IMG/VR virus record: IMGVR_UViG_3300021958_000041
Coordinates: 21,197-85,196 of that record
From: a virus
Taxonomy: Duplodnaviria > Caudoviricetes
DNA: 64,000 bases
Strand: one strand, 5' to 3'
How positions within the stretch are numbered: the stretch's first letter is position 1; each line of letters begins with the position of its first letter. Positions 858 to 43,349 of this stretch are shown here, piece after piece. The translations under genes were made by a program, and so were the position numbers. Under the pieces are notes generated by a model that ran no database searches, was not told the origin of the DNA, and worked only from the letters and a program-made list of their open reading frames with translations.

Positions 858-858
858 A

Positions 859-1306: not shown

Positions 1307-1308
1307 TC

Positions 1309-3156: not shown

Positions 3157-3378
3157 ATGAGGAGTCATTCGCAACTCCCCGAATCTATTAGAAAAAAAAA
3201 TAACAATAAAAACGAGTCATTCGAAGATTTAAAAAAATTAATAGATGAAGGGTATGAGAGATTTTGGGCAGCCCCGCACAGGCGAGGTTTGAGACCAGAC
3301 AAATTTAATTTTGGATATATTGATTTTTCTAATCCAAAAGAAATAACAGAAGATGAATTCCCTGATGACTTGACTTGA
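3157..3378 (+). CDS. hypothetical protein inserted between portal and protease
   Basis: 73-aa ORF with A-rich leader, occupies the intergenic gap. Confidence 0.5.
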   Translation: MRSHSQLPESIRKKNNNKNESFEDLKKLIDEGYERFWAAPHRRGLRPDKFNFGYIDFSNPKEITEDEFPDDLT

Positions 3379-3418
3379 CTTAAATTGTGATATTAGAAAA
3401 TAATAAAAAGTTACTGCT

Positions 3419-22700: not shown

Positions 22701-22810
22701 GAGTCACCTTTGTAGTGTCGATGGCCGAGATGCCCCAAACGGGAAATATCAGCGCTTACTATGAATCTTTATTCAATGTAGTTTCAAAAGCCACATGGAA
22801 TGGGCAATAA
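19688..22810 (+). CDS. large putative virion/tail protein (1040 aa)
   Basis: Long Thr/Ser/Tyr/Asn-rich ORF in tail module; no family recognised. Confidence 0.65.
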   Translation: MEHTVVGVKLSCVGERNQTYTVTASETYSFSSHFAETRNIDDCVAQVANNFLGNPYTFCSCTDKQTTDNAATYKSFLTVKATSTLGGHPDEHAVSVESEDKYSDGFGDRFHSPRNTANGCKTFKYELEGGGAGSTTELWNIKGHHSTDKWSDSWHTVSEDSNGYTKGKEVNNYPPYITYYPAHEDNFVPWFSKRITSKAETFTVPEIIYSTDLSGKVSDLSTFLNTSTRPFTTFNRILTHEEMYTSVSNHYTEISDDAPRIYYNDTRTFKTARFPFENILTTIICDDKDFVIFNTAAASYAGNHSFTKAKTVVINEIPPSQNWLGRAYHVPNKSKTLSWSTFGKDYRLPYNFGETEYPLFKKKTLNVKNWDVGKWSGANFKRYQIIEPVNQKANLSYLYQESQEIVEAPYTFSSDWHARFSLYKTKQVTVNWLIPSPAKINIGNSYGAIQYPQVENHLSYTKLNIEGWTPLGGGFRNQSATYPVNAGYTAFEVGSKTTYTELGDKSRRSSFKHGVSASPSRDWAYYQPNEVTVLGDIYLQATNIGKVLPRKFGSNFIQGSNRGTNADYFKAVQGERWPVHNIFGDTRVDNNIGAQAYRDNQALAIGDIDVSVRNYKFVTTRTKYLTIAGRRKRTTETHHLQSFGLPVANFTNPETAKEFWSFSYTDIVKTSDPEDSNKTSYVSSHNRIIEHNLGLDYNRPPNASTYAITDYDDSNWKEAKKPKAIEVLDSSWYGPLTQNGAYHSGSGVNSHGHESFNIADYRHIGNINNYDWRYHSTNSSSWLEVDDVDRGAYHGLKVADYHYKGILDAPREYLKSLKLQRVDWWGGGIINYHAPPDHGNSFYYNKWHDDYNYRFNAKDALLVAPIGVGGIGYDGSPFSGYIGNYYKSDLDITSYVENSNGSFDSSKTKLSLGLHTYIGTAQTFFAANPFSSINEPLGSTKLGAGTPFSVIYNPFQKKRNTFTDSNILSNNPEYFIEGMRFQDGVITKRGKPAQTETKENEDGERVTFVVSMAEMPQTGNISAYYESLFNVVSKATWNGQ

Positions 22811-23948
22811 ACACTATATAGCTACATATGCAACAGAGCGTTATACATACGCGCTCCCAAATTTCGGAAGAAGAATCGCAGCCTCTATCGTAGATTCAGG
22901 CATAAAGAAAGGTGTCTTCCTCTTTGTTTGCGATGAAGAAGAAAACACAAAAGATTGTGCGCGAAAATATATAGAAAGTGTATTACCAAAAGGATGGATT
23001 TTCAAGCTTATGCCGATTGCGGTAAATGATAAAGAAGTAAAAAATTACAAAGAAGATGCTCAATTATTAATAGCTCAACTTCAGTCATGTGCGTTTACTG
23101 AAGCAAGAAAGAATAACGCTAAATCTTTTTTTAGCGTAGAGTCAGATGTCCTAGTTCAGCCAAATTCATATAGAGTAGCTATGGACTGCATTAAATTTGA
23201 TAATGGATATTATGATATAGCAATGTGTTCTTATCCATCACAAGGAGGTGGACCGTTCTTAGGCGGAAGGGGGACAAAGCAATCTCAAATAGCAAATGAC
23301 GTATATGAAGATGAAAAAGATATACCAAAAGAACTTTTAAAGAAGAAAAAAACCTTAGACGATAAAATAAACAAAATTGAAAAAAAATGGCAAACTGACA
23401 AAGACCACATTGCGGCTCAAAAATCAAGAGATGAATTAAGGGAAGAAGAGGAAGAAATTCAAAAAAAAATCAAAGATTGTCCACCTAAAGGCAATGTGTA
23501 TGAGTTAAATGCCAAAAGATGGCGCAAGAGAGGATGGATGGAACATGCATATCCAGCAATAGGGAAAGGTGCTATAGTTCCTACCGACTGGGTCGGGTTA
23601 GGATGTACCTTGTTGTCTAGGAAAGCATTATCCTTATCTCACTTTGACGGATACATGGGCTTTGGTACGCAAGATTTATACCTAGGCTGGAATAGATGGA
23701 AGCAGGCAAATTTAAACATGTGCGTAACAACGCATAGTATATGTGACCATGTAATTAGAAAAAGGGGAGAAAATGGAGACCAGATTTGGGAAGATTTTGT
23801 TATTGTTAACAGCTTCCACGAGGAAGACGGAGAATACGAAGGACATCTTAGGCAAAATCATTCCAAAATGTACAATTTTACAGCAGGAGAAAAACCAAAA
23901 ATCTTTCAAGATGAGAAACCTGAAAAAACCGAAGATGAAAAAGGTTAA
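22800..23948 (+). CDS. GT-A fold (GT2-like) glycosyltransferase with coiled-coil insertion
   Basis: FSVESDVLV, DWVGLGCTLLSR, TQDLYL, CDH motifs; Lys/Glu-rich insert. Confidence 0.65.
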   Translation: MGNKHYIATYATERYTYALPNFGRRIAASIVDSGIKKGVFLFVCDEEENTKDCARKYIESVLPKGWIFKLMPIAVNDKEVKNYKEDAQLLIAQLQSCAFTEARKNNAKSFFSVESDVLVQPNSYRVAMDCIKFDNGYYDIAMCSYPSQGGGPFLGGRGTKQSQIANDVYEDEKDIPKELLKKKKTLDDKINKIEKKWQTDKDHIAAQKSRDELREEEEEIQKKIKDCPPKGNVYELNAKRWRKRGWMEHAYPAIGKGAIVPTDWVGLGCTLLSRKALSLSHFDGYMGFGTQDLYLGWNRWKQANLNMCVTTHSICDHVIRKRGENGDQIWEDFVIVNSFHEEDGEYEGHLRQNHSKMYNFTAGEKPKIFQDEKPEKTEDEKG

Positions 23949-27568: not shown

Positions 27569-30500
27569 ATGAGTTATTTAATATTCCCCTCTGGAGGTGG
27601 TGGTACAGGCGCAACAGGTGCGGCAGGAGCTGATGGTGACACTATAGAAGCAGGAGCATCCGCTCCTAACACCGCAGGAGGAGCAGTAGGCAACAGGAGA
27701 TACTGGCTTGATACATCCACAAATGAATTTTATTTCCTAGCGGCTAATGTTAGCCCTTCTCCTATTGGTAATTGGACAAAAATCGCAGACTTTAGTGGAC
27801 CAACTGGAGCCGCAGGCTCTAATGGGCTAAACGGAATTGACGGCGCTAGCGGAGACCAATGGACACATGCTCAATTGAACAATATAGCACCAAGTGATAA
27901 GGGTACTGCGGATGTTTTTGATGAGTATCAATTAGATACAGATACTGGGAAGGTTTACCATTGTGCCGCTAACGGAAAAACATGGGCTTTGGTTGCTAAT
28001 TTCACAGGCCCTCAAGGTATACAAGGAACACAAGGTATTACTGGAAATGTTGGGCCAACTGGTTCGGCTGGAGCATCTGGAAGTCAATGGTCATCTGGAA
28101 CAAATGCTCCAAGTAACTCAAATGGTAACCATAATGATTTTTATTTTAAATCAGATGATAGGGGGATATATAAGAAAACTGATATATATGCTACCATAGC
28201 TGTAACAATACCTACTTTTGCCGTAGGTGATGTAGTTGAATTTAATTATTTTGATGGAACATCTCAGCAAACAGCTACAATAACTATAGGCACTTCTGTA
28301 GTGTCAACAAATACAACATTTACCGCAGGAGCAGCTACAATTGCTCGCTCAGGCTCACAAAATACAGATGCCGCTGCAATAGTTGTACTTATTAATACTA
28401 TATCTGGGTATTCCGCTACTAGAAATAATGCAGATATTACAATAACCGCAGATACCGCAGGAAATGCATATAATTCATTACTAGATATTACGTTATCAGG
28501 AACTACTACGTCCACAAATGGCGTAGGCTCAATTTCTTGGGATTTACTAGCAACTATTAGTGATGGGCCTCAAGGAGCACAAGGCTTGACAGGAAATACT
28601 GGATTAACTGGAGCTACTGGAGCTACTGGAAATACTGGAAATGACGGGGAAGACGGCTCATTATGGACTTCAGGCGTTACAGATAAATTGCCAAGCGAGG
28701 GAAAATTAGGTGATTTTCATTTCAATACCCTAACATTTGACCTTTTTGAAAAAAGAGAAGTTCCACACATAAGTAAAATCACTATATCAAATCAAGAAGA
28801 TGGCGTACTAGGTGTAGATTTTGATGCAAATGGAGAAATGCTTTTCGACTCTTTCGATGCAAATGAAAAAGCAACATACAAAAGAGATGTAAGTCCAGAC
28901 CCAGATTACATAGTTGTTTTCAATGATGATGATTCGCAATGGGAACTAAGATTGGATGATAAAGATGTAGATGGAAATTATCAATCATCTCATTTTGCAT
29001 TTAACCCTCTTAGCTCTTCGGACGATGGGTATTACCCAAACCCCTTGACATGGCTAGTAAACGCAACAAATTGGCCATCCTCTTCCGCTGCAGTTGGATT
29101 ATTTGAAAATACCACTGCATCTTCTCAAAAAACAAATTGGTATACTGTTGTTAACCTAGAAGTTGGTGGAGCTGCAGGAGAAGGTGTTCCATCAGGTGGT
29201 ACTGCTGGTCAGGTATTATCTAAAGCAACGGCAACTGACTTTGACACTACATGGGTAGATGCTGGTGGCGCTGGTACTAAATTAGAAGGATGGGAAACTG
29301 ACACTGACGGGAATTTAGTTCCTGAGAATGACCAAGCGCAAAATATTGGAAGTCCAACAAGACAGCTTCATAGCTTGTATGTCTCAGGCAAAAGTATTTA
29401 TATAGATAATAAAAAATTAAGTGTAGACTCAGATAGTAATCTTTTTTACCAAACTGACGGAGGGTCAAAAGTATTACTAACTCAAGCCAATGGTACGGAG
29501 AGTAAAAGTGGAACTGCAAACATAACTGTAGGAACAGTTACCACAGGCGCTGCAGGAACGGATGCATCGGTATCGAATTCAGGGAATGCAACTGATGCAG
29601 TTTTTGATTTTACCATACCAAAAGGTGATGTCGGCCCAGCAGGCCCACAGGGAACGGCAGGATACAACGGTTCAATAAGCATAGAAGCAAGCGTATCAAA
29701 TGCAAGCGCACTTCCGTCATCATTAGGTGCGGGGGACGCAGGAAAAGGATACATAACACAGAACGATGGAGCTTTACACTTATGGGATGGAACTAAATTC
29801 GTTAATTTAGGAGCTGTTAGGGGAGAAAAAGGAGACACTGGTGACACAGGAGCTAGTTCTACTTTCATTCAGGGCACTACTGACCCTCAGGCATCGGATG
29901 GTAATGATGGTGATTTATACATAAACACCAATTCTGGTGATTTATTCGGCCCAAAGAATACAACTTGGGGTAGTGCAATATCAAACTTGAAAGGTCCTGC
30001 GGGAACGCGCGGAACTGATGGATTGAAGGGAAACGATGGAACCGCTGGTCAAGTAACAATTGGTACAGTAGCACATGGGTCTACTGCGGCAGTCACCAAT
30101 ACAGGAACTTCTTCGGTAGCTGTTTTAGATTTCGTATTACCCAAAGGTGATAAAGGAGAAAAGGGTGACCAAGGAAATACAAATGCTGTTACTATTACAG
30201 GAAATGTAGCATCAAGCGCTAACCTACCATCAGGGTTAGGACTATCAGATACAGGTAATGGATATATTAGTAATGATACTAAAGAATTGCATGTATGGGT
30301 AGGTACAGAATTTATAAATGTGGGAGGTGTACACGGCCCTGCTGGTGAAGACGGGAAAGGATGGACTTCAGGAGCATACGACCCATCTACTGGAATAACT
30401 TCATTTGAGTCAGATGATGGATTAGGTTTTCAAACCACCGACATAAGAGGTTCAGGATGGACAAGCTCCAATCAAGCTCCTACGGGAGGAAAAAATGGAG

Positions 30501-31282
30501 ACTTTCATTTTAATACTGCTACTAATAAATTCTACAAAAAAGTTTCTAATGTTTGGGAAGTTATAACAGATTTGCCTAAAAATTCAGGTACACCCGTAAC
30601 AGCAATCCTTCCTTTTGCGTTAGGCAAAATTACTGGCTCAATAGCAAATAGCCAAGTTGCATGTACTATAACGCAAAGCAGTAGTGGTGTATATGATGTC
30701 GCTTTTGCCACAGAGCAAGCTAATACTAACTACACCATATTTACTGACTCAGAGGGAATAAGCGTAGGTAGGGAGAAAATTTCAAATAAAACAACTAATG
30801 GATTCAGAATAGAGCATCTTGATAGTAGTAATGCTGTAATAAATGAAGATTGTTCTTTCATTTGCTTTGGCGAAAGTCCCCAAACGCATATTGGAACAAC
30901 TGTAGAAGAAAACATTATTCTTGAACTGACAGAAGAATTTGGTCAGCCTCAAGCGGGAACAGTGATAAATGTAAAATCATTAAGACTACCTTATAACTTC
31001 AGAATAACTGGCATGACTGCATGGTGTAATGCACCATTTGAGGACGCCCCTCAGGTCACGCTTTCAAATGAAATTAATGAAGATATTTTAACTCAGAACT
31101 TAACTCTTCCAAGTAGTCATTTATCTTCAAATACCGCAGGCTCAAGCAATCAAGCAGTTGTTGATACTAGTAAAAGAGATATAGATGCATATAGCTTGAT
31201 TCAAGTTGGAACAATTTGGTCTGATGGAAAATCTGGTCATGGCTTGAAAGTGGTTATCCAAGGAATAAGAACTTCTTTCTAA
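27569..31282 (+). CDS. collagen-like tail fibre protein
   Basis: Many Gly-X-Y runs (GPQGIQGTQGITG, GDKGEKGDQG), G.dGD.Y..T knob motifs, duplicated ~100-aa module. Confidence 0.82.
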   Translation: MSYLIFPSGGGGTGATGAAGADGDTIEAGASAPNTAGGAVGNRRYWLDTSTNEFYFLAANVSPSPIGNWTKIADFSGPTGAAGSNGLNGIDGASGDQWTHAQLNNIAPSDKGTADVFDEYQLDTDTGKVYHCAANGKTWALVANFTGPQGIQGTQGITGNVGPTGSAGASGSQWSSGTNAPSNSNGNHNDFYFKSDDRGIYKKTDIYATIAVTIPTFAVGDVVEFNYFDGTSQQTATITIGTSVVSTNTTFTAGAATIARSGSQNTDAAAIVVLINTISGYSATRNNADITITADTAGNAYNSLLDITLSGTTTSTNGVGSISWDLLATISDGPQGAQGLTGNTGLTGATGATGNTGNDGEDGSLWTSGVTDKLPSEGKLGDFHFNTLTFDLFEKREVPHISKITISNQEDGVLGVDFDANGEMLFDSFDANEKATYKRDVSPDPDYIVVFNDDDSQWELRLDDKDVDGNYQSSHFAFNPLSSSDDGYYPNPLTWLVNATNWPSSSAAVGLFENTTASSQKTNWYTVVNLEVGGAAGEGVPSGGTAGQVLSKATATDFDTTWVDAGGAGTKLEGWETDTDGNLVPENDQAQNIGSPTRQLHSLYVSGKSIYIDNKKLSVDSDSNLFYQTDGGSKVLLTQANGTESKSGTANITVGTVTTGAAGTDASVSNSGNATDAVFDFTIPKGDVGPAGPQGTAGYNGSISIEASVSNASALPSSLGAGDAGKGYITQNDGALHLWDGTKFVNLGAVRGEKGDTGDTGASSTFIQGTTDPQASDGNDGDLYINTNSGDLFGPKNTTWGSAISNLKGPAGTRGTDGLKGNDGTAGQVTIGTVAHGSTAAVTNTGTSSVAVLDFVLPKGDKGEKGDQGNTNAVTITGNVASSANLPSGLGLSDTGNGYISNDTKELHVWVGTEFINVGGVHGPAGEDGKGWTSGAYDPSTGITSFESDDGLGFQTTDIRGSGWTSSNQAPTGGKNGDFHFNTATNKFYKKVSNVWEVITDLPKNSGTPVTAILPFALGKITGSIANSQVACTITQSSSGVYDVAFATEQANTNYTIFTDSEGISVGREKISNKTTNGFRIEHLDSSNAVINEDCSFICFGESPQTHIGTTVEENIILELTEEFGQPQAGTVINVKSLRLPYNFRITGMTAWCNAPFEDAPQVTLSNEINEDILTQNLTLPSSHLSSNTAGSSNQAVVDTSKRDIDAYSLIQVGTIWSDGKSGHGLKVVIQGIRTSF

Positions 31283-31283: not shown

Positions 31284-34200
31284 ATGAGTACAAATTACCT
31301 CCAAGCACCACCTACGTCGGATGGTACTGTTTTAAGTACAACAACCCCTCTAGTATTCGGTAAGGAAAACTGCTTTCCTTATATAAAACTTTTTGCTACT
31401 GACTGGAGTGGATTAAAAGAAGAAGAAGTAGAAGCGTTAGGTGGACACCTTATGCAAATGAATCGTTTTGTAACAAAACATACGCAGGGTTTATCAAAAG
31501 AACATTGGTCTCCAGAATGCATTAAAACTGTAAATAAGTTTTGGTATGACTCCAACCAATGGATGTATAATGTCCCAGAGGAATATAGAAAAATACTAGA
31601 CCGAAGATATGAAAACTACGGACAGTATATAGGAAACTGGGAAAAAATTAATTTCACAACACCCGAAGAGCGAGTTGCGTGGGAAAATATAAATAATGCT
31701 GGCTTCCTAGACCCTGATGTTAATTTTAGTGCATTACCTCCGTGGGAAGACAATTCCTTGGAAGCAGTACTAGATAGAGGTGAGCTTCAAATTCAATCGG
31801 ATAGAACTCAAAATAATTCTATTACTGGTAGTTTTTATCATGGTTTTGGGGATAATAAAAGGTTTGACTCAATGCTTATTGCATCCGCCAACAAGCCCGA
31901 ATTAACTGAGTTTGTCAGGCAGATTTCCTTTCACTTCAAGCACCATACTGATAAGTGGAATAAAGAGGGTCATAAATTTGACCCTAATAATTTACCTTAT
32001 TATTCATCCTTTGCACATCAAATGAGTAGTGCGAGCGGTGGGGCTGAAAAAATATCTCATAATTTACTTGGTGATTTTGAGTGGGATGGAGTAGAGACAG
32101 AAGATTTTGTGGAATCGGAAGGACTATTAAATGTAGCATTTGAACCCAAGAAAGTATTTAGAAACACATCAACAACTGGTGATTATAAGGATTATAGAAT
32201 AGTTTGGCATTCACAAGGAATACCTGATTCAAATAATGCCCCAACTTGGGTTATAGCTACTGATAAAGTTGAAAGTAAGACTCATACTCTAGCAGGAGAT
32301 ATGGTTGTGGAGTTTCTTTCTGGAACACACAACATTAATGCAAGAAATTTGGGTTATCCAAGTGATGCTATTTCTTCAATAAAGGTAACACAGAATGGAA
32401 TAACTCATACCTATAGCTATACACAAGGGCCAAGAAGATTGGATAAAGATGGAAATCTACCAACAAAAGGTTTTCAAACAGACGAATACTTCTTTGCATC
32501 TAGCGTATATGACCAAGGTAACCTTACAGAAGTAGTTTATGACAACAATAAGGCCCCATCCAATAATTACCAAGGTAATTATTTGTACACCATTTGGCGA
32601 GAAGAAAGATTACAAATTATTCATAAAGATGGAGTTTTCCAAGGTATAGTCATTTCATACCTGAAAGATATGGAGACAACCTCTATTCAATTTAACAATA
32701 AAACAAACCCTGACCCCTTAGACCCAAATAATCAAACTTGGTACAAGGAGTCATATACTTTTGATAATAATTCATTAATATCACGTGGTGATAAGTATAT
32801 TTTAACCTCCGACTATACTACGAAAACTCAACATACTGTTATTGATGACTTTTCGGGTGGCGTAGATAACTTAACAAACGGAAGCTCAAAGCATCCACCA
32901 AGTGTTTTTACTTACCAAGCAACAAGAACTCCTGCTTATTTTTACAACCAAAAAGAGCTTTATGACCCAAGTTGGTCTATATGTGCCGAACTACCTGATG
33001 TACTAGAAACTAAAGAATACTGCTTAATAGATACATATGACTATCACACTGAAGCTGGAGGTAGTCATACATGGAGAGGTATAAAGATTAGCTACTATCA
33101 TGATACTGTCACATCTGGTAATTGTAATTTTTCAGTTCAAACTACCGATGTGAGCGGAGGGACAGCAACTAGACCAGCATTTACACAAGAAATTAAACAT
33201 CAAATAGATTTCAGTAATACAACTGCTCAAGGCGTAAGCATGAAAAGGTTCATTGCTTGCGTAAAATGCGATGGAGCCAACTCGCAGGTGGATTTGGTTT
33301 ACAATAGAGGAAGTGAAACAATAACAGGTACACTTGACTTCAATAAGACCGACCAACTGAAAGGCATAGTTGTCGGTATGCCTACAGACACAAGCCTAAA
33401 TTACTTACAAGGTGGATGGGAAGGCAAAATAGCAGAGCTATTTAATTCTGCAGCCACCTCAGGTGAAGATATTGATTCTATTGTTGGGTATTTATCGCAT
33501 AAAAATGGAATAGAACTTCCAGACACCCATCCATATTATGATTCCTGCCCATCAGGGTGTAAAATAATATGTGACCCATGTATGTATATAGATGAAGAAA
33601 CATGCATAAGTATACCAGATGTGAATCCTACAATTAGGTATAGTGTAGACCAACCTTTTTTTAATCAAATAAACAAAAGTGGTGATTTTGGATTTGGGGT
33701 AACATCAATTCCTTATTCTTCAAGGGAAGATGAAATCTATGATGGTGTTGCTGGCGAACGTATTGAGCAAAATGATGACAGGGTTGTTAGAGATAAACCT
33801 TACACTGGCGAGAAAACAGTTGAAATAAAAAATTTAACACTAGACGGAAGACCCTGTGATATAACACATATATTAAGTTTATCAGGAATGATATATAGGA
33901 GTGACGAGGATTGTCCAACTGGTTCTCCTACATTTTCCGCAAAGAAAGCAGTATGCTGTGAAGTTGATGATGTTGGTACAACTAAATTGATGGATTTTAA
34001 TCAAGACTTCGACCAGACCCCTGGCGACTTCATGACAGATGAGGAAAAAACTAAGCTAGAAGAGCGTTGTAAAGCGTTAGGTAAGTCAGAGCAATATGAC
34101 CATATAGTTAATGGCGGAATAAGTGTTTTAAGCACAGGCGAGGTACCAATAAATGCAACTTATAACCCTGCAACAAAGAGGGTGATTCACTATATTAGTA

Positions 34201-34862
34201 GCCACAATCCTGCATATCATAATCCAGAGCGTTACGATTTTGATAAAGAAGCTATGAATGAGCAATTTGATTGGCATACTGAAGCTAATTTTGGGGAATG
34301 CTTAGGTGAAGCATGCTGCCCAACAACTACAACTACCACGACTCGCCCGCCAATTCACCCAGTAGAATGCTTCGTAGACCCGAAGAAGGATGCAAATTGC
34401 AGACCCTATCTTCAGGTAAAAGTAAAAATGACAGCACAAGGATTAGCTTCAGTAGGTCTAGCGAGTGATGGATGGGCTAGAGGTTTAGCAATATATGCAA
34501 ACACTACAGGTGATTGTGAGCTTGACCCTGACCCTAGTCCTTCTGGGAATAACGTTGAAGAATCTTTTACTAAATCTACATCCACTGAAGAAGAATTAGA
34601 ACAAGGAAGTTCTAATTCAGTTATATCTGGAGGTATGGTAAGTAATTCAAGAACTTTCACAGTAGCTGCATCGTGTGGATGTAATACTCGATGGGTAGTA
34701 AAGTCATTAGGGTTGAACCCAGATGGTGCTAATCAACAACAAATACTATCAGGAAATGTCATTTGCGGTGGTGATTACTTTGTTTCAGAAGAAGAATGCG
34801 ATGCGCTAGAATGCGAAACGACCACGACAACATCTACTACAACTCCTATTTATGGAGCATAG
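31284..34862 (+). CDS. large virion protein with LamG/ConA-like segment, Cys-rich regions and two poly-Thr tracts
   Basis: WEGKIAEL...IVGYLSHKNGIELPDTHPY pattern; CCPTTTTTTTRPP and C-terminal ETTTTTSTTTP. Confidence 0.6.
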   Translation: MSTNYLQAPPTSDGTVLSTTTPLVFGKENCFPYIKLFATDWSGLKEEEVEALGGHLMQMNRFVTKHTQGLSKEHWSPECIKTVNKFWYDSNQWMYNVPEEYRKILDRRYENYGQYIGNWEKINFTTPEERVAWENINNAGFLDPDVNFSALPPWEDNSLEAVLDRGELQIQSDRTQNNSITGSFYHGFGDNKRFDSMLIASANKPELTEFVRQISFHFKHHTDKWNKEGHKFDPNNLPYYSSFAHQMSSASGGAEKISHNLLGDFEWDGVETEDFVESEGLLNVAFEPKKVFRNTSTTGDYKDYRIVWHSQGIPDSNNAPTWVIATDKVESKTHTLAGDMVVEFLSGTHNINARNLGYPSDAISSIKVTQNGITHTYSYTQGPRRLDKDGNLPTKGFQTDEYFFASSVYDQGNLTEVVYDNNKAPSNNYQGNYLYTIWREERLQIIHKDGVFQGIVISYLKDMETTSIQFNNKTNPDPLDPNNQTWYKESYTFDNNSLISRGDKYILTSDYTTKTQHTVIDDFSGGVDNLTNGSSKHPPSVFTYQATRTPAYFYNQKELYDPSWSICAELPDVLETKEYCLIDTYDYHTEAGGSHTWRGIKISYYHDTVTSGNCNFSVQTTDVSGGTATRPAFTQEIKHQIDFSNTTAQGVSMKRFIACVKCDGANSQVDLVYNRGSETITGTLDFNKTDQLKGIVVGMPTDTSLNYLQGGWEGKIAELFNSAATSGEDIDSIVGYLSHKNGIELPDTHPYYDSCPSGCKIICDPCMYIDEETCISIPDVNPTIRYSVDQPFFNQINKSGDFGFGVTSIPYSSREDEIYDGVAGERIEQNDDRVVRDKPYTGEKTVEIKNLTLDGRPCDITHILSLSGMIYRSDEDCPTGSPTFSAKKAVCCEVDDVGTTKLMDFNQDFDQTPGDFMTDEEKTKLEERCKALGKSEQYDHIVNGGISVLSTGEVPINATYNPATKRVIHYISSHNPAYHNPERYDFDKEAMNEQFDWHTEANFGECLGEACCPTTTTTTTRPPIHPVECFVDPKKDANCRPYLQVKVKMTAQGLASVGLASDGWARGLAIYANTTGDCELDPDPSPSGNNVEESFTKSTSTEEELEQGSSNSVISGGMVSNSRTFTVAASCGCNTRWVVKSLGLNPDGANQQQILSGNVICGGDYFVSEEECDALECETTTTTSTTTPIYGA

Positions 34863-34864: not shown

Positions 34865-35674
34865 ATGTCACTGAATTCATTTTGTGCTGTCGCAAATAGT
34901 AAGTACAAAAAAGAAGCTGCTTTTTTAATATATTCAATACGAGCATTTTACGAACACCCGATACTGCTGTATTGCGATGTTGACACGAGACAATATTTAA
35001 AAGGTTTTGGATTTAAGAATATATTCTATCGTGACCATTTAAATCAGACAAAACTTGGTGAGATAAACCAAAAAGTAGTTCACGTAAAACGTCACAATGA
35101 GTTCCATTCTCCTGAGTATATATACTTAAAGATGGACGCTATGGAGGAAGCCATATCAAACTTTGGAAATACATTGTTTGTTGATTCTGATATATGCATA
35201 GTAAGACCAATTGCTAATGAAATGCCAATTGATGATTTGGGACTATCGCCCCATTATAGCGAGCGTAATTATGTTAAGAGTACAATTGCGTTTGGAATCT
35301 TTAATGCAGGCTATGTATACGCACAGAACAAAGAAGTACCACAAGAATGGAAGCATATATATTTAAATGAATCTAAGTTTTACGAGCAAGAAGGTATGTA
35401 TAAACTTATGAATAAATTTAAATTTTCTATTTTTGATAAAACACACAATGTAGGATTTTGGAGATTCAATCAGCAATGGACGAATGGCAGTTTAGTTAAG
35501 TCAAGCTTGCAAGGTGTAGATAAATCCAATGTAAAATCTTGGCATTTTCACATAGATATGGACACATACAAAAGTGCTGATAAAGTGTTAAGAGATGGAT
35601 ATAAACAAATATACGATGAAATTATATTATCTTTGCCACAACATATGAAATGGTTTTTAAAGAAACTGACATGA
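34865..35674 (+). CDS. nucleotide-diphospho-sugar transferase (GT8/GT77-like)
   Basis: LFVDSDI (DxD), FNAGY, FYEQ motifs; start chosen at ATG 3 nt after upstream stop (ORF track starts at 34796). Confidence 0.72.
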   Translation: MSLNSFCAVANSKYKKEAAFLIYSIRAFYEHPILLYCDVDTRQYLKGFGFKNIFYRDHLNQTKLGEINQKVVHVKRHNEFHSPEYIYLKMDAMEEAISNFGNTLFVDSDICIVRPIANEMPIDDLGLSPHYSERNYVKSTIAFGIFNAGYVYAQNKEVPQEWKHIYLNESKFYEQEGMYKLMNKFKFSIFDKTHNVGFWRFNQQWTNGSLVKSSLQGVDKSNVKSWHFHIDMDTYKSADKVLRDGYKQIYDEIILSLPQHMKWFLKKLT

Positions 35675-37239
35675 TTAATTATGTTTATTGCAGTACTAAT
35701 CCCGACCAAAAGAAATTAGCACAAGGTATAATTAATTATTCATTTGTAAGTGGATGTCCTATATATGACCAATATTCATCAGGAGATTACGGGGCAGAAA
35801 TTGTAAGCAAATTAACAGGTAAAATTTTTGTGCAATGGATGATTGCAATTTCAGATTTAGAGAAAATAGCTAAACCAGATTGGTACTTTTGGGTTGGTGT
35901 AGATTATTTAAATTATTTAAAAAGCGGAAAACAGCCAGCTAATGTTAAGTACATAGCAAATTGTTACCATGTACAGCAGAAATTACTCGAAGATTATGGA
36001 ATAAAATCGCGCGTAATATCAAGAATTGGTAAAGCTGTAGAGATTAAGAAAACTTTTCTCGATTTTAAAAAAATAAGAATCGGTATACTCGATGTATGGC
36101 ATGAATCATATAAACATAAAGAAATATATGATAATTTAAATACTTCCTTAATAAAAGACTTTGAGCTTTTTGGCACAGGGCAAGGAGAATATAAATTACA
36201 CGACAACACTTTATTAGATTCAGAAATTAAAGAAAAATGTCCATATATAAGATTATGCGAATTTAATACACTTGATATGGATGTGTTACTCGTAAGTAAT
36301 TTTGGTAATGAAAGTAATATTAATAAATGTTTAAATGATGGAGTTCCAGTTGTTTCTGTACCAAGCATATATGCGCTAGATTTAGAAAAGAAATACAGTT
36401 GCATAAGTATTGCACGAGGTGGTAACTGGGGGGATGCGGTAATTAAGTCCTTAAGCCCACAAATAGTAAACGGGAGAAAGCAAATAGCTAGTCTAACATC
36501 AGATGAGCAGATGCAAAATATTTTTCATAGCTATAGCGCGAAGCTCGATTTAAGGCATAGAAAATTAAATAAAATAAATATCTTTGGTATGTTTAGAAAT
36601 AATGAAGATACTATTGGCAAAACGCTTTCATATCTTAAAATAAATGAGAGAAAAATAAACGTGCCATGCTCTTACTATCTATATGAAAATGATAGTGATG
36701 ATGATACTCCCGAACAAATTAAGGAATTTTATAGACATACGAACGGAAAATATAAAAGTGAAATACTTGGGAATAAAATGCATGCAGGAACCTCACGCCC
36801 TGAAAGATTGAGAGACTTAGCAATATATAGAAATAAGATGAAAGAGCTATGCGATGATTGGTCAAGTGAGTATAGTTTCATAATTGACAGTGAGATAGAC
36901 TTTCCTTCTGATATATTTATAAAAATGATTACAACCTTAGAGTCTCATAAGGATTGTGTTATGGTAACACCTTTCGGGACTCATGAATATAACAATGAAT
37001 ATTATGATATTTTTGCATACCTTAATAAGCAAGGGGAGAAGACGCCCCCTTCACCCCAGCGTATATCGGAAGCTAATTCCGCTTTTTCAGGGTTTGCGTG
37101 CATTAAAACCAGCGTATTTGAGAAGTGTCATTGGAACGCTCTTGCTGATGTTAGCGAACATATCTTCTTTTGCGATATGGTGCGTCAGTACGGAAAAATA
37201 ATCATAGACCCATCAATTAAGGTAACTTGGAAAAAGTGA
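35671..37239 (+). CDS. two-domain glycosyltransferase (C-terminal GT-A domain)
   Basis: C-terminal YENDSDDDT, LAIYRN, IIDSEI, YYDIFA, SAFSGF, SEH motifs; N-terminal half weakly GT-B-like. Confidence 0.65.
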   Translation: MINYVYCSTNPDQKKLAQGIINYSFVSGCPIYDQYSSGDYGAEIVSKLTGKIFVQWMIAISDLEKIAKPDWYFWVGVDYLNYLKSGKQPANVKYIANCYHVQQKLLEDYGIKSRVISRIGKAVEIKKTFLDFKKIRIGILDVWHESYKHKEIYDNLNTSLIKDFELFGTGQGEYKLHDNTLLDSEIKEKCPYIRLCEFNTLDMDVLLVSNFGNESNINKCLNDGVPVVSVPSIYALDLEKKYSCISIARGGNWGDAVIKSLSPQIVNGRKQIASLTSDEQMQNIFHSYSAKLDLRHRKLNKINIFGMFRNNEDTIGKTLSYLKINERKINVPCSYYLYENDSDDDTPEQIKEFYRHTNGKYKSEILGNKMHAGTSRPERLRDLAIYRNKMKELCDDWSSEYSFIIDSEIDFPSDIFIKMITTLESHKDCVMVTPFGTHEYNNEYYDIFAYLNKQGEKTPPSPQRISEANSAFSGFACIKTSVFEKCHWNALADVSEHIFFCDMVRQYGKIIIDPSIKVTWKK

Positions 37240-37764
37240 ATGAAAGAAAGGATAATACAAGCAAGTCCTGGCCACACAGGAAGTACTATTCTAGTAAATT
37301 TACTATATGGTTTATTAGAACCAAATTCCGATGTGAACTTTCAAGGTAAAACTGAGAACCTTGGAAAAAAATTTATTACCAAAACGCATAAACTGAACCT
37401 TGATTCCATCATCAATAATTTAAAAGATAATGAAATATATTTTGTAATGTCAGAAAGGAACGACAAGAAAGTAAAAAAACTGATAAATCAAAAATACAGA
37501 AACTATAAAAATGTATTAATATTCAATTTTTTTGAATTACTTGAAACTGAAAATAATACTATCTCCCAGATATGCATAAATGCAGAAAAGAAGCTAAGAA
37601 AGTTTTTACCTACGACAGCATTGAAATATGCAAAAGGTGATTTGCAAACAATGAAAAATAGAATAATTGCCATGAATGCGACTTATGAAAAAATTAAAAA
37701 CGAACCTTTTTCATATGTAAATAAGTTTTATCATATTCATGGCTCACATAGAAACAGGAAGTAA
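37240..37764 (+). CDS. sulfotransferase-like protein
   Basis: QASPGHTGSTILVNLL resembles the 5'-PSB loop; TKTH motif; short. Confidence 0.5.
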   Translation: MKERIIQASPGHTGSTILVNLLYGLLEPNSDVNFQGKTENLGKKFITKTHKLNLDSIINNLKDNEIYFVMSERNDKKVKKLINQKYRNYKNVLIFNFFELLETENNTISQICINAEKKLRKFLPTTALKYAKGDLQTMKNRIIAMNATYEKIKNEPFSYVNKFYHIHGSHRNRK

Positions 37765-37768
37765 AGCT

Positions 37769-38440
37769 ATGATAGACACTAAAAATAAAATAATTTTCAT
37801 TCACATACCTAGAACTGGAGGTTCTCAATTTAGTAATCATTATTATAATGATGTTCTCTCAGAGCATTTGCCCGTTGAAATATATAGCAATTATTGCAGT
37901 TACGGAGACTTTGACGCAAAGCATTTTAGGTATAAAGATTACAAGCATTTTATTGGTCCTAAAATAAATGAATATAAGATTGTTACTGTTGTAAGAAATT
38001 CATATGACCTAGCAGTATCTAATTGGATGATGCATTACAATTCGCTAGAAACAAAGAGTGAGGCGTCAAAAGAATTTTGTAAAGATTTTACTTCTTTTGT
38101 TGGGTGGTTAGAGCATCAGAAAAAAGCAGGGAATAAGCACCCCAACTGGACTTTTCTAAGTCCTTATAATTCAATGAAGCAATTAGAATACATAGAGGGT
38201 GCAGAGAATTGCGAAATCATTAGATACGAAAATTACAACCAAGACGTTCGTAAGTTTTTCCTCAACAATTTTGGTATAGAAACTAAATTAAAAAGATACA
38301 CCAATGATGAGTTGAGGAAAAGAGAATCTTATAAAAACAGAAAAATGAACTATTCAATTTATTATGATTCTGACTTAAAAAAAAGAATAGAAAATTTGTA
38401 TAGAAAAGAAATAGATTATTTTGATTATAAAATAGAGTGA
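37769..38440 (+). CDS. sulfotransferase (Sulfotransfer_2 family)
   Basis: FIHIPRTGGS (5'-PSB), TVVRNSYDLAVS (3'-PB), IIRYEN. Confidence 0.8.
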   Translation: MIDTKNKIIFIHIPRTGGSQFSNHYYNDVLSEHLPVEIYSNYCSYGDFDAKHFRYKDYKHFIGPKINEYKIVTVVRNSYDLAVSNWMMHYNSLETKSEASKEFCKDFTSFVGWLEHQKKAGNKHPNWTFLSPYNSMKQLEYIEGAENCEIIRYENYNQDVRKFFLNNFGIETKLKRYTNDELRKRESYKNRKMNYSIYYDSDLKKRIENLYRKEIDYFDYKIE

Positions 38441-39258
38441 TGAAGAATTATATTTTATATAGACTAGGAGATGACGGAATAGGTTGTACTTTATTAAGGT
38501 TTGCATATTTGAATAAGGTATTTCCAGACAAGAAAATAATAATCAGTCCTGAAAGTTGGTGTTATTTTGACAATAATTATGATTATGATGAAATTGCAAA
38601 AGTATTTAATTTCCACCCTAAAGCAATTTTAGCACCGCAAGTAATAAGCAAAATTAAAAAGGAACAAATTTTAAATCCAAGAGCAAAAACAAAAAAGGAT
38701 TCATATTATGAATTAATTCAAAGCTATAATACAAAAGGATTAACAGCTATAGAAATCATTAATTCTACTGAGATTAATGAAGGTAATTTATTATTTTCAC
38801 TTAAAGAACAGCCATCAATGCCATTAAATGCTTCTAATTTAGTAGGTGTACATGCAAGACTTGGTAATGGTGAACTCAGAGTGGATGGAACTTTGATTCC
38901 GAGAATGAATGTATTAATGGAAACTTTCATAAAAAACATGAAAAAGTTTGAAACAAATAATTTTTATGTATGCTCAGATACAGAAAGTTTTATTGATTTG
39001 TGTAAAAAAGAATTTGGCAAAAGAATTATAACGCAATCAAGATTTTATGCGCCAAGAGGTCAAGGGCCAGGACATAAACGTAAATTAAGGAAACAACACA
39101 TGAATCCAGTTGAGCAAATAAAGGAAGCCTTAATAGACATAACTCTATTATCAAAATGCACACATTTAATATGCAACGGAAGCGCCTTTGTTAAATTTGC
39201 TAAAAGTAAAATTAAAAAAGAAAATATTAAAGATGTCAGATGTAAAAAATTTTTATAA
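38437..39258 (+). CDS. NodZ/GT23-like fucosyltransferase
   Basis: DGIG, VGVHARLG, FYVCSDT, ALIDITLLSKCTHLI motifs of alpha-fucosyltransferase-like GT-B enzymes. Confidence 0.7.
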   Translation: MMKNYILYRLGDDGIGCTLLRFAYLNKVFPDKKIIISPESWCYFDNNYDYDEIAKVFNFHPKAILAPQVISKIKKEQILNPRAKTKKDSYYELIQSYNTKGLTAIEIINSTEINEGNLLFSLKEQPSMPLNASNLVGVHARLGNGELRVDGTLIPRMNVLMETFIKNMKKFETNNFYVCSDTESFIDLCKKEFGKRIITQSRFYAPRGQGPGHKRKLRKQHMNPVEQIKEALIDITLLSKCTHLICNGSAFVKFAKSKIKKENIKDVRCKKFL

Positions 39259-40147
39259 AATAAAAAAGCACTTTGAAAGGTGCGAACACCCTGAAAAGTT
39301 TTTCCAAAAAAGGAAAAAACAGTTCAATAGTATAGATGTATCAGAAAGTAGAAACATACAGGGTGGAAGCTTTATAATAGATAATATAGTATATATTAAT
39401 TTAGATTCAGCAGTAGAGCGCAGAAAAGAAACAGAAAAAGCTTTCAAGTCAGCAAACATTAAAAGCTTCGATAGATTTTCTGCGATAGCGGGAATAGATT
39501 ACCCTACGATGAGCGCACTAACTCTTGTCGCAGAAAATAAAACCACAAATTTATTGGATGTAGGTGACAGACTAACTTGGGACAATGCAACAATATGGGA
39601 TGAGGGGAAAACAGAACGTATCCTAAATAGATTAAAGTTCAGAAATAAGGCAGCTGCTGTTATTTCCCATTCAAAGTTATTGGATTTGTGTGTAAATAAA
39701 TATAATAATTGGGTACTAGCATTTGAGGATGATTTTACTTTGAACTATAATTTTGAAGAATTTTTAGAAAAAGTAAGACCATTAACGGAAAAATATGACT
39801 TCATAGTAACAGAGTCACGACAAGGTCTATCACAAAGAAACGGAACAGGAATTGGAGCTTGCGGATATATGTATAATTGCTCGAAAATTCCAAAAGATTT
39901 CAAAAAATATTATTGTGTATCAGATTCAAAATATTTTTCAGATTACACGGCAAAGCCAGTATATATGACAATGAGTGCGGACTTACGTCTCCATAATTCG
40001 TTAAGGCGCGCAAATATCAGAGTCACACATATGGAGGAGCCATTTGTAAATAGTTATGGACTGCATGGATTTTCGCAGTCTGATAGTAGTTACCGAGCAA
40101 GCACAATAGCGGTAAATCCAAAGCTGAATTGTTTCAATGAAGGGTAA
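39233..40147 (+). CDS. GT25-like glycosyltransferase
   Basis: VYINLDSAVERR, RFSAI, SH, LAFEDD motifs; start could be 39188. Confidence 0.72.
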   Translation: MSDVKNFYKIKKHFERCEHPEKFFQKRKKQFNSIDVSESRNIQGGSFIIDNIVYINLDSAVERRKETEKAFKSANIKSFDRFSAIAGIDYPTMSALTLVAENKTTNLLDVGDRLTWDNATIWDEGKTERILNRLKFRNKAAAVISHSKLLDLCVNKYNNWVLAFEDDFTLNYNFEEFLEKVRPLTEKYDFIVTESRQGLSQRNGTGIGACGYMYNCSKIPKDFKKYYCVSDSKYFSDYTAKPVYMTMSADLRLHNSLRRANIRVTHMEEPFVNSYGLHGFSQSDSSYRASTIAVNPKLNCFNEG

Positions 40148-40161
40148 GTAGAGCGGTAGCT

Positions 40162-40662
40162 ATGGAGAAAACATTAATAAATCACGTATGCTCTTTAGGC
40201 TTTAATTGCATGCCATCCTTTTTCCTACAAGCACAATCTTTAAAAATAAAAAGCTACCCAATTGATTGGTGTTTTAGTAGTCAGAAAGCAATAAGATATT
40301 GTATAAAAAATAAGTTCAAGGATTTTTTAAATACAGATTTGCATAAACGTTATCCGAAAAACAAAAACTATATATATAATATTAAAACTAAAATAATTTA
40401 CCCACATGGTCGTCATCCACTCAACGATATGCCATATTATGAAAGGTGCGTTGCGAGATTTAATAAAATGATTGAAAGTGGGGAGCCAATCCTTTTCGTT
40501 ACAAGTTTCAAAAAAAGAAATCTACTCGAAGCTGAACTCAGGAAATTGAATGAAAACATTTATTTTATTGAAATTCATGGAAGGAGAAAAGAAGTTGAAA
40601 GCTTGCATTTGATTAACAAAGAATACGATTTAAGAAAAAAATACGAAATAAAATTAAAATGA
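40162..40662 (+). CDS. DUF1796-like putative papain-type peptidase
   Basis: SLGFNC, SYPIDW, YERCVARF motifs. Confidence 0.65.
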   Translation: MEKTLINHVCSLGFNCMPSFFLQAQSLKIKSYPIDWCFSSQKAIRYCIKNKFKDFLNTDLHKRYPKNKNYIYNIKTKIIYPHGRHPLNDMPYYERCVARFNKMIESGEPILFVTSFKKRNLLEAELRKLNENIYFIEIHGRRKEVESLHLINKEYDLRKKYEIKLK

Positions 40663-41930
40663 AAAAATTAACAATAGGTTCCGCAGTATACGATGACCCT
40701 GAAGGTGTGTGGTACACATATCAATCATTGCGATTGAATAATAAAGATATATTAGACCAAATAGATTTTATAGTAGTCGATAACCACCCAACAGGATTGC
40801 CATCTAAAGATACAAGAGCAATATGTAGAGACTTATCAATAAATTACATCCCTAGTGGAGAGCGCAGGACAACGGCTATAAGGAATAAGATATTTGAAAA
40901 TTCTAAAACTCCTTGGACTATGTGCATTGATAGCCATGTATTATTCGAACCTGAAACAATTAAAAACCTAATAAACTGGTTGGATAAAAATCCTGATTGT
41001 GAAGACTTAATACAAGGTCCACTCCTATATGATTTTTTCGATAAAGAAAAATCCATATCAACTCACATGAACCCGACTTGGCGCTCATATATGTATGGAA
41101 TTTGGGCAAGAGATGAAAGAGGAGAAGATATTAATGGTGAGCCTTTTGAGATACCAATGCAAGGATTAGGTGTATTTGCCTGTAAGACAGACAAATGGCT
41201 ACCATTTCACCCCTTATTTAAAGGATTTGGTGGCGAGGAAGGATATATACATGAGAAGTTCAGGAAAGCAGGAAGAAAAACATTATGCCTACCTTTCTTG
41301 AGGTGGTTGCATAAATTCAGGAAATCTGAGCCAGTACCTTATCCAAATATAGTAGAGGAAAGAATTCACAATTATACAATTGGTCATTTGGATAATGGAA
41401 AGAATTTAGACTCAATGAGAAAACATTTTGAAGAAAATTTAGGAGCGTTGAAAACAAGAAACTCAATTGAGTCAGCGGAAGAAATATTTAAAGCTCACAA
41501 AGAAGACCCAGAGATGATAGAGCAGATGTTTTTTGAGAACGACAGCATAGAGGTAGCGCCCAAGCCTCCAAAAGAAGATGTCGAACCTAGAGATTTAGCT
41601 TGGTCAGGAGTTATTATTACCCGACCAAAGAATGCAGACAAAATTAAGAAAGTCCGTGTAATACCTAAAAAATCGTTATTAGATAAAGTCTACCTAACTC
41701 CCTTAAGTGTATATAATAAAGAGAAAGGCAAGTACCAACCCAAAGCGAATAAGGAGTTTACAAAAGAAGGATTCGTACTTGATGTAGGAGAAGCTATAGA
41801 TTTTGAATTTGACGAAAAATTCGAGACTAATTCATTTGAAATATATCCCGCCAAAGACCCTTTACATATAAGGCATATGGAGGTCTTTTACACTCTAGAT
41901 AATAAAGAGTGGACTCAATTCGTATTTTAG
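40659..41930 (+). CDS. GT-A glycosyltransferase with DSH motif (GT2/GT27/GT60-like)
   Basis: VVDN, CIDSHVLF, GLGVFAC, FKGFGGEE, WLH motifs; extra C-terminal domain. Confidence 0.72.
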   Translation: MKKLTIGSAVYDDPEGVWYTYQSLRLNNKDILDQIDFIVVDNHPTGLPSKDTRAICRDLSINYIPSGERRTTAIRNKIFENSKTPWTMCIDSHVLFEPETIKNLINWLDKNPDCEDLIQGPLLYDFFDKEKSISTHMNPTWRSYMYGIWARDERGEDINGEPFEIPMQGLGVFACKTDKWLPFHPLFKGFGGEEGYIHEKFRKAGRKTLCLPFLRWLHKFRKSEPVPYPNIVEERIHNYTIGHLDNGKNLDSMRKHFEENLGALKTRNSIESAEEIFKAHKEDPEMIEQMFFENDSIEVAPKPPKEDVEPRDLAWSGVIITRPKNADKIKKVRVIPKKSLLDKVYLTPLSVYNKEKGKYQPKANKEFTKEGFVLDVGEAIDFEFDEKFETNSFEIYPAKDPLHIRHMEVFYTLDNKEWTQFVF

Positions 41931-41933
41931 TTA

Positions 41934-43349
41934 ATGGATAACGAATTAGCTCATGAAGGCAGGCTAGCGCTAACAAAGCAGGCTCGCTCAGATTTAATGG
42001 CTTATGTATTAGCCAATGACCCTCTGTATATACCCTCAAAAGTTCATGTATATTTATGTGATAAGTTGCAAAAGCTAATCGAATCTAAAGGTGAACGTAG
42101 GCTCATTATAAATATGCCCCCACAGCATGGTAAGAGTAGACTTGTTGCTGAAGAGTTTGCTTCCTATCTACTTGGAATAGACCCGTCTCAAAATATTGTA
42201 ATTGCTGGATACAACACTGAGCTGCCATTAAAAAACTCAAAATCTATTCGCAGGCGCTTTGATAGTGATACATACAGAGCTATTTTCCCAAAATCAAAAA
42301 TGTCTGCTGACACTAGAACTGCAAACAATTGGATGACTACCGAATTAGGTGGAATTAGAGCAGTTGGTCTAGGCGCAGGATTGACGGGAAATCGAGCGTC
42401 ATGTCTTATTATTGATGACCCGCACAAGGATAGAGCCGCAGCGGAATCTCTTACATCCAGAGAACATGTTTGGGATTGGTATCAATCAGTTGCTATGACA
42501 CGACTAACTCCTGATAGTATAGTTATAATAATTATGACTAGATGGCATGAAGATGATTTAGTAGGAAGATTGAGTGATGAAAAATACATCGAGCAATTAA
42601 CATCTCAAGGTTTTGAAAATCAAGTATATGAAATCATTAACTTTCCAGCAATTTGCGAAGACGAAGATAATGATATGCTAGGCAGGAAAAATGGTGAAGC
42701 ATTATGGCCTGAAAATAAAGATACAAACTTTATAGAAGCGAGAAAAGTTATGCTTACTCCGTATGAATATAATGCACTATACAGAGGTAATCCAGTATCC
42801 AAAGGTGGTAACATAGTAGACATTAATATGCTCAACTTTATAGATGCGCATGAAGTACCCCCCAATATAGAAAAAGTCAGAGCTTGGGATTTAGCTATAA
42901 CGACAAAACAAACATCTGATTTTACCGCATCTGCATTATGCGCATATGACAAGCAGCAAGATATATTTTACATAACAAATGTATTTAAAAAAAGAATGAA
43001 TTGGCATGAAATAAAAAGAACTGTCAATAGATACGCAGACTTAGAGGTTAATAGAATTGGAGTCGAAGCCGTTTCTGGATTCATAGCAGCGTATGAGGAG
43101 ATAAAAGAGGAAAGAATGGGCAAGAATATAGTAACAGCACTAACTCCGAAAGGAGATAAGCTAACTAAAGCTAACCCTTGGTTAGCGAAAGTAGAAGCTG
43201 GCAGAGTGATGGTAGTAAAAGGAAATTGGAATTATGACTTTATTGAAGAATTAAGAACTTTTCCAGACGGAAAGCATGACGACCAAATAGATGCAGTTAC
43301 ACTATGTTGGAATATGATAAATAAAGCTTCGAGATTATTACTAGCATGA
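41934..43349 (+). CDS. terL: terminase large subunit
   Basis: Walker A NMPPQHGKS, Walker B LIIDDPHK, MTRWHEDD, nuclease RAWDLA and HDDQIDA. Confidence 0.95.
   Translation: MDNELAHEGRLALTKQARSDLMAYVLANDPLYIPSKVHVYLCDKLQKLIESKGERRLIINMPPQHGKSRLVAEEFASYLLGIDPSQNIVIAGYNTELPLKNSKSIRRRFDSDTYRAIFPKSKMSADTRTANNWMTTELGGIRAVGLGAGLTGNRASCLIIDDPHKDRAAAESLTSREHVWDWYQSVAMTRLTPDSIVIIIMTRWHEDDLVGRLSDEKYIEQLTSQGFENQVYEIINFPAICEDEDNDMLGRKNGEALWPENKDTNFIEARKVMLTPYEYNALYRGNPVSKGGNIVDINMLNFIDAHEVPPNIEKVRAWDLAITTKQTSDFTASALCAYDKQQDIFYITNVFKKRMNWHEIKRTVNRYADLEVNRIGVEAVSGFIAAYEEIKEERMGKNIVTALTPKGDKLTKANPWLAKVEAGRVMVVKGNWNYDFIEELRTFPDGKHDDQIDAVTLCWNMINKASRLLLA

Follow-up and report, generated by a model that had tools for sequence, protein, structure and literature searches.

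Mucin-type O-glycosylation started by the polypeptide N-acetylgalactosamine (GalNAc) transferases of family GT27 is, to our knowledge, regarded as a eukaryotic invention, and the documented cases of phage virion glycosylation that we know of are limited to a few actinobacteriophages. Here we describe a glycosyltransferase (GT) gene at positions 40659–41930 of a 64,000-nucleotide (nt) window (the whole stretch of DNA analyzed, positions 21,197 to 85,196 of the IMG/VR record IMGVR_UViG_3300021958_000041, a virus of the Caudoviricetes), whose product we posit, with a probability of roughly 55%, to O-glycosylate poly-threonine (poly-Thr) tracts in tail proteins that the phage itself encodes and to start the glycan there. 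The strongest evidence is a family-wide neighbourhood link between the enzyme and poly-Thr proteins in other phages and in bacteria, alongside which stand a predicted GT27-like fold, invariant active-site motifs, and an excess of Thr runs in the genome itself.

Among described enzymes, the GT27, GT60, GT7, and chondroitin-type GT2 domains share one clade, and replacement of the DxD motif by DxH is confined to GT27 and GT60 (Taujale et al., PMC7185993). The Mn2+ ligands of GalNAc-T2, a GT27 enzyme, are D224, H226, and H359, and its residues E334, R362, and K363 touch the peptide (PMC4432651). On the phage side, mycobacteriophage GTs modify capsid and tail proteins, according to work cited in a passage of PMC11256854.

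Predicted fold and active site of the enzyme

The gene and the parts of its product are as follows (aa, amino acids; pLDDT, predicted local distance difference test).

40659–41930, + strand: glycosyltransferase gene; 423 aa, ATG start, predicted soluble GT-A enzyme
40659–41543, + strand: catalytic domain (residues 1–295); predicted GT-A fold, nearest to GT27 catalytic domains
40929–40937, + strand: D91-S-H93, putative metal-binding DxH motif; pairs with GalNAc-T2 D224-S-H226
41229–41240, + strand: G191-G192-E193-E194, xED-type motif; pairs with GalNAc-T2 G332-G-E334-N335
41310–41312, + strand: H218, candidate C-terminal His metal ligand; invariant, 25 residues past E193
41544–41594, + strand: Pro/Lys/Glu-rich disordered linker (residues 296–312); pLDDT <50
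41610–41927, + strand: C-terminal beta-sandwich (residues 318–423); shortened derivative of a discoidin (F5/8 type C, CBM32-like) module

No part of the protein is markedly hydrophobic (the Kyte-Doolittle mean over 19 residues peaks at 0.47), and it is therefore predicted to be soluble. Pfam places Glycos_transf_2 (PF00535) above its gathering score at residues 22–113 (E 2e-8), with a sub-threshold F5/8 type C match at residues 378–421; searches of NCBIfam, PHROGs, and BFVD with the enzyme gave generic "glycosyltransferase" labels or nothing, and searches of the PDB with the protein (phmmer) and with the family profile (hmmsearch) found no GT27 chain and nothing for the catalytic domain. An AlphaFold2 model, built from a 48-sequence alignment (37–70% identity) that also served for conservation, reached a mean pLDDT of 89 and divided the protein into the GT-A domain, the linker, and the all-beta domain listed above. 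The first-pass annotation, made from the sequence alone, had suggested a polypeptide-transferase likeness and named a fold search as its check, and in that check the catalytic domain indeed came out nearest to the GT27 polypeptide GalNAc-transferases. GalNAc-T2 chains ranked first in Foldseek against the PDB (E 1.3e-13), with RmlT and TarP not far behind; the gap in the structural ranking, 3–4 Z units, is moderate, yet consistent between two methods. The best structural matches of the modelled catalytic domain, GT27 followed by the chondroitin polymerase K4CP, fit the clade described in PMC7185993.

The two motifs on which that annotation had relied lie, by translation, where it placed them: CIDSHVLF at residues 89–96 (nt 40923–40946) and FKGFGGEE at residues 187–194 (nt 41217–41240). 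Beyond these short motifs, residues 190–230 align without gaps to residues 331–371 of GalNAc-T2 (BLASTP, 13/41 identities, pairwise E 1e-5; the GalNAc-T2 331–372 query sequence was confirmed to be identical to the PDB chains). The alignment pairs G191-G192-E193 with G332-G333-E334, P212 with P353, R215 with R356, H218 with H359, F220 with F361, R221 with R362, and K222 with K363, so that a His lies 25 residues beyond the Glu of GGE in both proteins (E193 to H218, E334 to H359). The motif reads FGGEE where GalNAc-T2 has WGGEN, with F190 standing for W331 and E194 for N335. Across the 48 sequences, D41, N42, D91, H93, F187, the block G189–H198 (GFGGEEGYIH), W216, H218, and F220 are invariant, and the motifs are therefore strongly constrained and not a product of chance; R221 and K222 vary within the family.

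The last residue of the xED motif is the catalytic base in inverting GT-A enzymes (PMC7185993). In the phage enzyme this position is occupied by the invariant E194, and in GT27 by Asn. GT7 enzymes have Asp there. Given an invariant Glu at the base position, both retaining and inverting chemistry are possible, and the anomeric outcome may thus be either.

The first-pass annotation had also noted a beta-rich C-terminal domain of about 130 aa, which is borne out by the all-beta domain of the model, and had likened it to the lectin domain of GT27 enzymes. Of that parallel, a functional part survives: the domain is not ricin-type, but the discoidin/CBM32 module of relatives is a fair functional analogue. 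With E values from 1e-4 to 7e-3, the family profile matches CBM32 modules that belong to glycoside hydrolases of Clostridium perfringens (GH31 4lks, E 1e-4; NagJ 2v5d; GH89 4a41; NagH 2j1a), and several of the matched hydrolases act on mucin-type glycans. About 40 residues of the discoidin module are missing from the window enzyme and also from its closest relatives (P0002, P0005–P0007), and its C-terminal domain falls below the Pfam cut-off and gives weak, non-significant structural matches. We rejected identity with a ricin-B beta-trefoil lectin because the domain is a beta-sandwich; it is at best analogous, not homologous, to the GT27 lectin domain, and a sugar-binding role for it in the window enzyme is a guess.

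Poly-threonine proteins beside homologues in phages and bacteria

The family is an undescribed phage and bacterial branch in the GT27/GT60/GT7 neighbourhood of GT-A enzymes, and literature searches turned up no paper that describes it or reports GT27-like enzymes from phages or bacteria. A word-indexed search recovered 3788 homologues at E ≤1e-3, nearly all of them unnamed metagenomic sequences and several from Tara ocean samples, and an exhaustive search recovered 1592 representatives of 50%-identity clusters at the same threshold, 1034 of these at E ≤1e-30. Many relatives of 410–450 aa end in a PF00754 discoidin domain, and others consist of the catalytic domain alone (~275 aa). At least 385 IMG/VR contigs carry a homologue, as do 361 loci in GTDB bacteria (one genome per species scanned). 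By tblastn (E 1e-5), neither the window enzyme nor a T4-like homologue (L030 10001–10789) found a match among 50,697 deposited phage genomes, which include those of mycobacteriophages; a terminase query of the same database gave 2380 matches, so the database works, and cultured collections therefore miss the family, which has no cultured model phage. Among the neighbours of the catalytic domain (40659–41543) in a structural atlas, 36% of the members of one bacterial cluster of similar structure have the GT domain joined to a LanC-like domain, and Pfam Glyco_transf_7C is present in 47–82% of the members of several other bacterial clusters, a hint of peptide-modifying relatives and of a tie to the GT7/GT27 motif region.

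To describe the phage context, open reading frames (ORFs) were called in the best 80 of at least 385 IMG/VR loci, and each gene was scored by its Thr-richest 30-residue segment. The gene directly upstream of the homologue reaches at least 12 Thr per segment in 52 of 71 loci, against a background of 2% (19/974) among genes more than two positions away. Upstream examples lie 12 nt before the gene for the homologue and encode small proteins of 22–41% Thr with Thr/Pro repeats; these hyper-Thr genes come after genes with Mtd_N or tail-protein/tail-fibre PHROG matches. Examples from uncultured T4-like phages are:

L030, 9297–9989: hyper-Thr gene
L068, 9513–9989: hyper-Thr gene
L023, 9470–9988: hyper-Thr gene
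L034, 10809–11291, − strand: hyper-Thr gene
L057, 9125–9988: hyper-Thr gene

The encoded proteins have in common a Cys-rich CC/CxxC motif near their centre and, at the C-terminus, a conserved ending of the C..C.KLGF type (...C..NKLGF), and are therefore a real family and not mere low-complexity ORFs. A CCP-T7-RPP tract in the window resembles their central motif.

No glycosyltransferase is among the ten commonest neighbour families in the 80 phage loci, and the other glycan genes of the window have no homologues there. The smallest module thus consists of the enzyme and a Thr-rich protein, and it is because these two form the whole module in those phages that we call the enzyme initiating. Adjacency is usually seen with the short form of the enzyme; the long, discoidin-bearing form (in the window, L001, and L002) is not directly adjacent. 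In L002 (195 kb) and L003 (79 kb), the enzyme closes an island with GT2-FkbM methyltransferase, sulfotransferase, GT25, and methyltransferase genes, and this island comes after a large Thr-rich protein, in L002 one of 808 aa (19% Thr) and in L003 one of 535 aa (12% Thr). These two contigs, from unrelated phages, thus share the layout of the window: a large Thr-bearing protein, then an island ending in the enzyme.

The bacterial context, taken from the best 80 of the 361 GTDB loci (L081–L160; Hyphomicrobiales, Arenicellales, Desulfobulbales, Acidobacteriota, and others), offers an independent line of evidence. The bacterial catalytic domain is 43–51% identical and mostly lies inside multidomain proteins of 450–1300 aa, fused to PqqD, GT25, Sulfotransfer_2, FucT_N, methyltransferase, or HPr-kinase-like domains. 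PqqD proteins (E 1e-14 to 1e-16) adjoin it in 33 of the 80 loci, 27 loci have an NTP_transf_5 nucleotidyltransferase, and small leader-plus-poly-Thr proteins lie beside it in 29. The leader reads RR..LK, a hydrophobic stretch, and P.KW.KPVV.SV.LPAHA, and is followed by a Thr tail of 10 to ~30 residues. It is twin-arginine-like, and there are one or two such small proteins per cluster (for example L089 6951–7866, L114 6106–6600, L138 6535–6906, and L160 6763–8837). PqqD-type domains are described in a passage of PMC7470986 as peptide-recognition elements of the pathways for peptides that are made on the ribosome and modified after translation (RiPP pathways). The bacterial clusters resemble a RiPP-like or exported mucin-peptide system, one not described before, and the PqqD and poly-Thr neighbours together argue that the catalytic domain acts on peptides with poly-Thr cores.

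Both contexts bear on an alternative that we judge unlikely, namely that the window enzyme extends or caps tail-protein glycans that another GT has started, its C-terminal domain binding the growing glycan. Candidate starters would be the products of ORFs 35650–37239, 34865–35671, and 22800–23948, the last two of which match no Pfam family at E ≤0.01. However, the T4-like loci pair a lone catalytic domain with hyper-Thr proteins and have no other recognizable GT nearby, the bacterial domain is paired with peptide-binding PqqD domains and poly-Thr peptides, and DxH is the GT27/GT60 variant (PMC7185993).

Candidate acceptors and the late operon

The phage genome is probably complete, a circular assembly of ~85.07 kb, because the first 30 bases of the 85,196-bp contig (contig positions 1–30) recur at 85069–85098, 127 bases before its end. 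All large ORFs of the window lie on the + strand, among them the following.

17455–19107, + strand: tail-module protein, 550 aa, candidate acceptor; N-terminal G6-T9 tract
27569–31282, + strand: tail-module gene; matches tail-fibre PHROGs
31284–34862, + strand: last large tail-module protein, 1192 aa, candidate acceptor; two Thr tracts
34865–40662, + strand: remaining glycan island; tightly packed, between the fibre genes and the enzyme gene
41934–43349, + strand: terminase large subunit gene; Pfam Terminase_6N and 6C

The poly-Thr tracts to which the first-pass annotation had assigned the enzyme do exist: T9 (within G6-T9) at 17494–17520 in ORF 17455–19107, and, in ORF 31284–34862, T7 (within CCP-T7-RPP) at 34323–34343 by translation and T5-S-T3 at 34818–34844, six residues from the C-terminus and ending ~20 nt before the island. 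The whole 85-kb genome contains no further Thr run of five or more residues, all three are in large tail-module proteins, and they are encoded by mixed Thr codons; composition predicts 0.02 such runs, and none of 2000 proteome shuffles gave three.

About eight glycan genes fill 34865–41930, and the enzyme gene comes at their end. Those ahead of it encode a 269-aa ORF product with no assignment, a protein of 529 aa that matches a CAP59-type GT weakly, two sulfotransferase-like proteins, a NodZ-like (fucosyltransferase-type) protein, a GT25, and a DUF1796-like protein. The enzyme's ATG overlaps the stop codon of the DUF1796-like gene (ATGA), and the terminase gene begins 4 nt past the enzyme's own stop; the enzyme gene is translationally coupled in this way and lies inside the late operon, with the fibre genes before it and the terminase gene after it. 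The terminase is at most 33% identical to that of any deposited phage (50,697 genomes), and the phage thus belongs to an uncultured lineage. The only close relative is L001, in which positions 268–4899 correspond to 39233–43349 of the window: the GT25, DUF1796-like, and terminase proteins are 95%, 73%, and 84% identical, and the enzyme between them is only 44% identical, a contrast that, at the level of sequence, suggests that the enzyme gene has been replaced as a cassette or has diverged very fast. A lineage test asking whether fibre relatives that lack the tract also lack the enzyme failed, since the fibre C-terminus has no IMG/VR relatives and L001 begins inside the island.

On this basis we posit the following pathway. 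A soluble, cytoplasmic, putatively metal-dependent GT-A enzyme from the polypeptide O-glycosyltransferase neighbourhood (GT27, GT60, GT7, chondroitin-type GT2) would, late in infection, transfer a sugar from a UDP-sugar, plausibly an N-acetylhexosamine (HexNAc), onto Thr hydroxyls, its targets being the G6-T9 tract of ORF 17455–19107 and the CCP-T7-RPP and T5-S-T3 tracts of ORF 31284–34862. The GT25, the NodZ-like fucosyltransferase, the further GT, and the two sulfotransferases of the island would then extend and decorate this first sugar, and the C-terminal beta-sandwich may hold the enzyme on substrate that is already glycosylated. The outcome would be tail patches that are mucin-like and possibly fucosylated and sulfated.

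Several observations weigh against this proposal. A profile-profile comparison (hhalign) of the 48-sequence alignment with 14 GT27 sequences was non-significant (probability 0.3%, E 0.21), although the alignment was still co-linear over 187 columns, pairing VDN with VDD, DSH with DSH, GGEE with GGEN, and H with H. For this reason we do not claim GT27 membership, the ricin lectin domain and the membrane topology being absent as well; Pfam Glyco_transf_7C (PF02709) likewise gave no match to the enzyme at E ≤0.1 and is absent from the precomputed domains of 120 homologues. The 52 adjacent loci are not independent, since clustering at 70% identity leaves 23 enzyme clusters, 11 of them with the adjacency, and a single clade of T4-like phages (gp32 nearby) holds 50 loci. 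In the window itself, no Thr-rich gene adjoins the enzyme gene, whose neighbours are the DUF1796-like and terminase genes, and the nearest Thr tract (34818–34844) lies 5.8 kb upstream with the glycan island between. The claim of an initiating O-glycosyltransferase, which the first-pass annotation had inferred, therefore holds in part: the GT27-like fold, the DxH motif, the gapless GGE...H.FR region, and the poly-Thr neighbourhood link speak for it, but the GT27 profile and PF02709 do not, the word "initiating" is drawn from relatives, and the Thr-rich neighbour is absent here.

The glycan island could also be read as an auxiliary or host-conversion module in which the enzyme remodels a host surface polysaccharide (lipopolysaccharide, capsule, or S-layer glycan) and has no connection with the virion. 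We regard this as improbable: the enzyme has no membrane anchor, the window holds no flippase, polymerase, or lipid-carrier gene, the island sits within the late structural operon from fibres to terminase, and the family-wide association with Thr-rich proteins would be unexpected for a polysaccharide enzyme.

Less probable still is a role in glycosylating a non-virion protein or peptide, such as a small secreted or host-directed product; the RiPP-like clusters of the bacterial homologues (PqqD, NTP_transf_5, leader-bearing poly-Thr peptides) and the GT-LanC-like fusions among the structural atlas neighbours would suit it, but the island genes scanned contain no PqqD domain and the genome's only Thr runs lie in large tail-module proteins, none of them in a small leader-type ORF. 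DNA glycosylation was rejected, as no search showed likeness to phage DNA glucosyltransferases and the context is structural.

Beyond the O-glycosylation of tail proteins by the window enzyme, the phage and bacterial loci can be joined into a broader picture, which we offer tentatively and, with all its parts taken together, as possible rather than probable. Mucin-type O-glycosylation systems of the cytoplasm would form a large family, undescribed so far, in both phages and bacteria; in these systems an enzyme of the GT27/GT60 clade starts poly-Thr glycans and, in bacteria, PqqD guides it to exported-looking leader peptides with poly-Thr. The phage targets would be fibre-associated mucin-like proteins. 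In the phage of the window, the enzyme, aided by a C-terminal module that reads earlier sugars as the GT27 lectin does, would seed glycans from which the GT25, the fucosyltransferase-like enzyme, and the two sulfotransferases of the island make sulfated, fucosylated, mucin-like tail patches. The family would then be a prokaryotic sister, or even the source, of the eukaryotic mucin-initiating enzymes.

Comparison with known systems

If the proposal is correct, mucin-like glycoproteins are made by prokaryotic viruses for themselves and are probably located on tail appendages, which would bear on how these viruses recognize hosts, adhere to particles or mucus, and are protected from proteases at sea. 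The sulfotransferases and the fucosyltransferase-like gene in the window suggest glycans of unusual complexity for a phage, and a small soluble enzyme together with short Thr peptides makes a directly testable candidate.

Among phage systems, the mycobacteriophages resemble this locus in that their GTs are encoded beside structural genes and presumably O-glycosylate virion proteins of the same phage; virion glycosylation by mycobacteriophages was reportedly described by Freeman et al. in 2023. The two differ in that homology between them is not known, with tblastn of the enzyme finding nothing in mycobacteriophage genomes, and we know of no poly-Thr tracts or sulfotransferases in the mycobacteriophage system.

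Among enzymes, GT60 (Dictyostelium Gnt1, which acts on Skp1, and Trypanosoma cruzi OGNT) likewise has DxH for DxD and adjoins GT27 in the GT-A phylogeny (PMC7185993). No GT60 structure was among the fold-search matches of the phage enzyme. Gnt1 is soluble and cytoplasmic, as the phage enzyme is predicted to be. The GT7 beta4-Gal/GalNAc-transferases and the GT2 chondroitin-polymerase domain (K4CP, 2z86) also count among the closest known systems. For the C-terminal domain the nearest counterparts are the C. perfringens CBM32/F5-F8 type C modules, which the family profile matches and many relatives carry as PF00754; the copy in the window enzyme differs from them in being reduced by ~40 residues and in giving no significant structural match.

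The closest comparison overall is with GT27 (mouse GalNAc-T1 8v9q, human GalNAc-T2 4d0t/2ffu, Toxoplasma GalNAc-T3 8uhv), the best structural match of the catalytic domain. The phage enzyme differs in having GEE for GEN, in its lack of significant sequence similarity, in having no transmembrane anchor or stem and hence being predicted as cytoplasmic, and in its setting, phage and bacterial hosts as opposed to the eukaryotic Golgi. What the two have in common is DxH, GGE, and a C-terminal His placed 25 residues past the Glu of GGE, from which metal binding by the phage enzyme is predicted, together with the pairing of a catalytic domain with a C-terminal module of sugar-binding type and the association with Thr-rich, mucin-like acceptors. 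The family may be a prokaryotic relation of the enzymes that initiate the synthesis of animal mucins.

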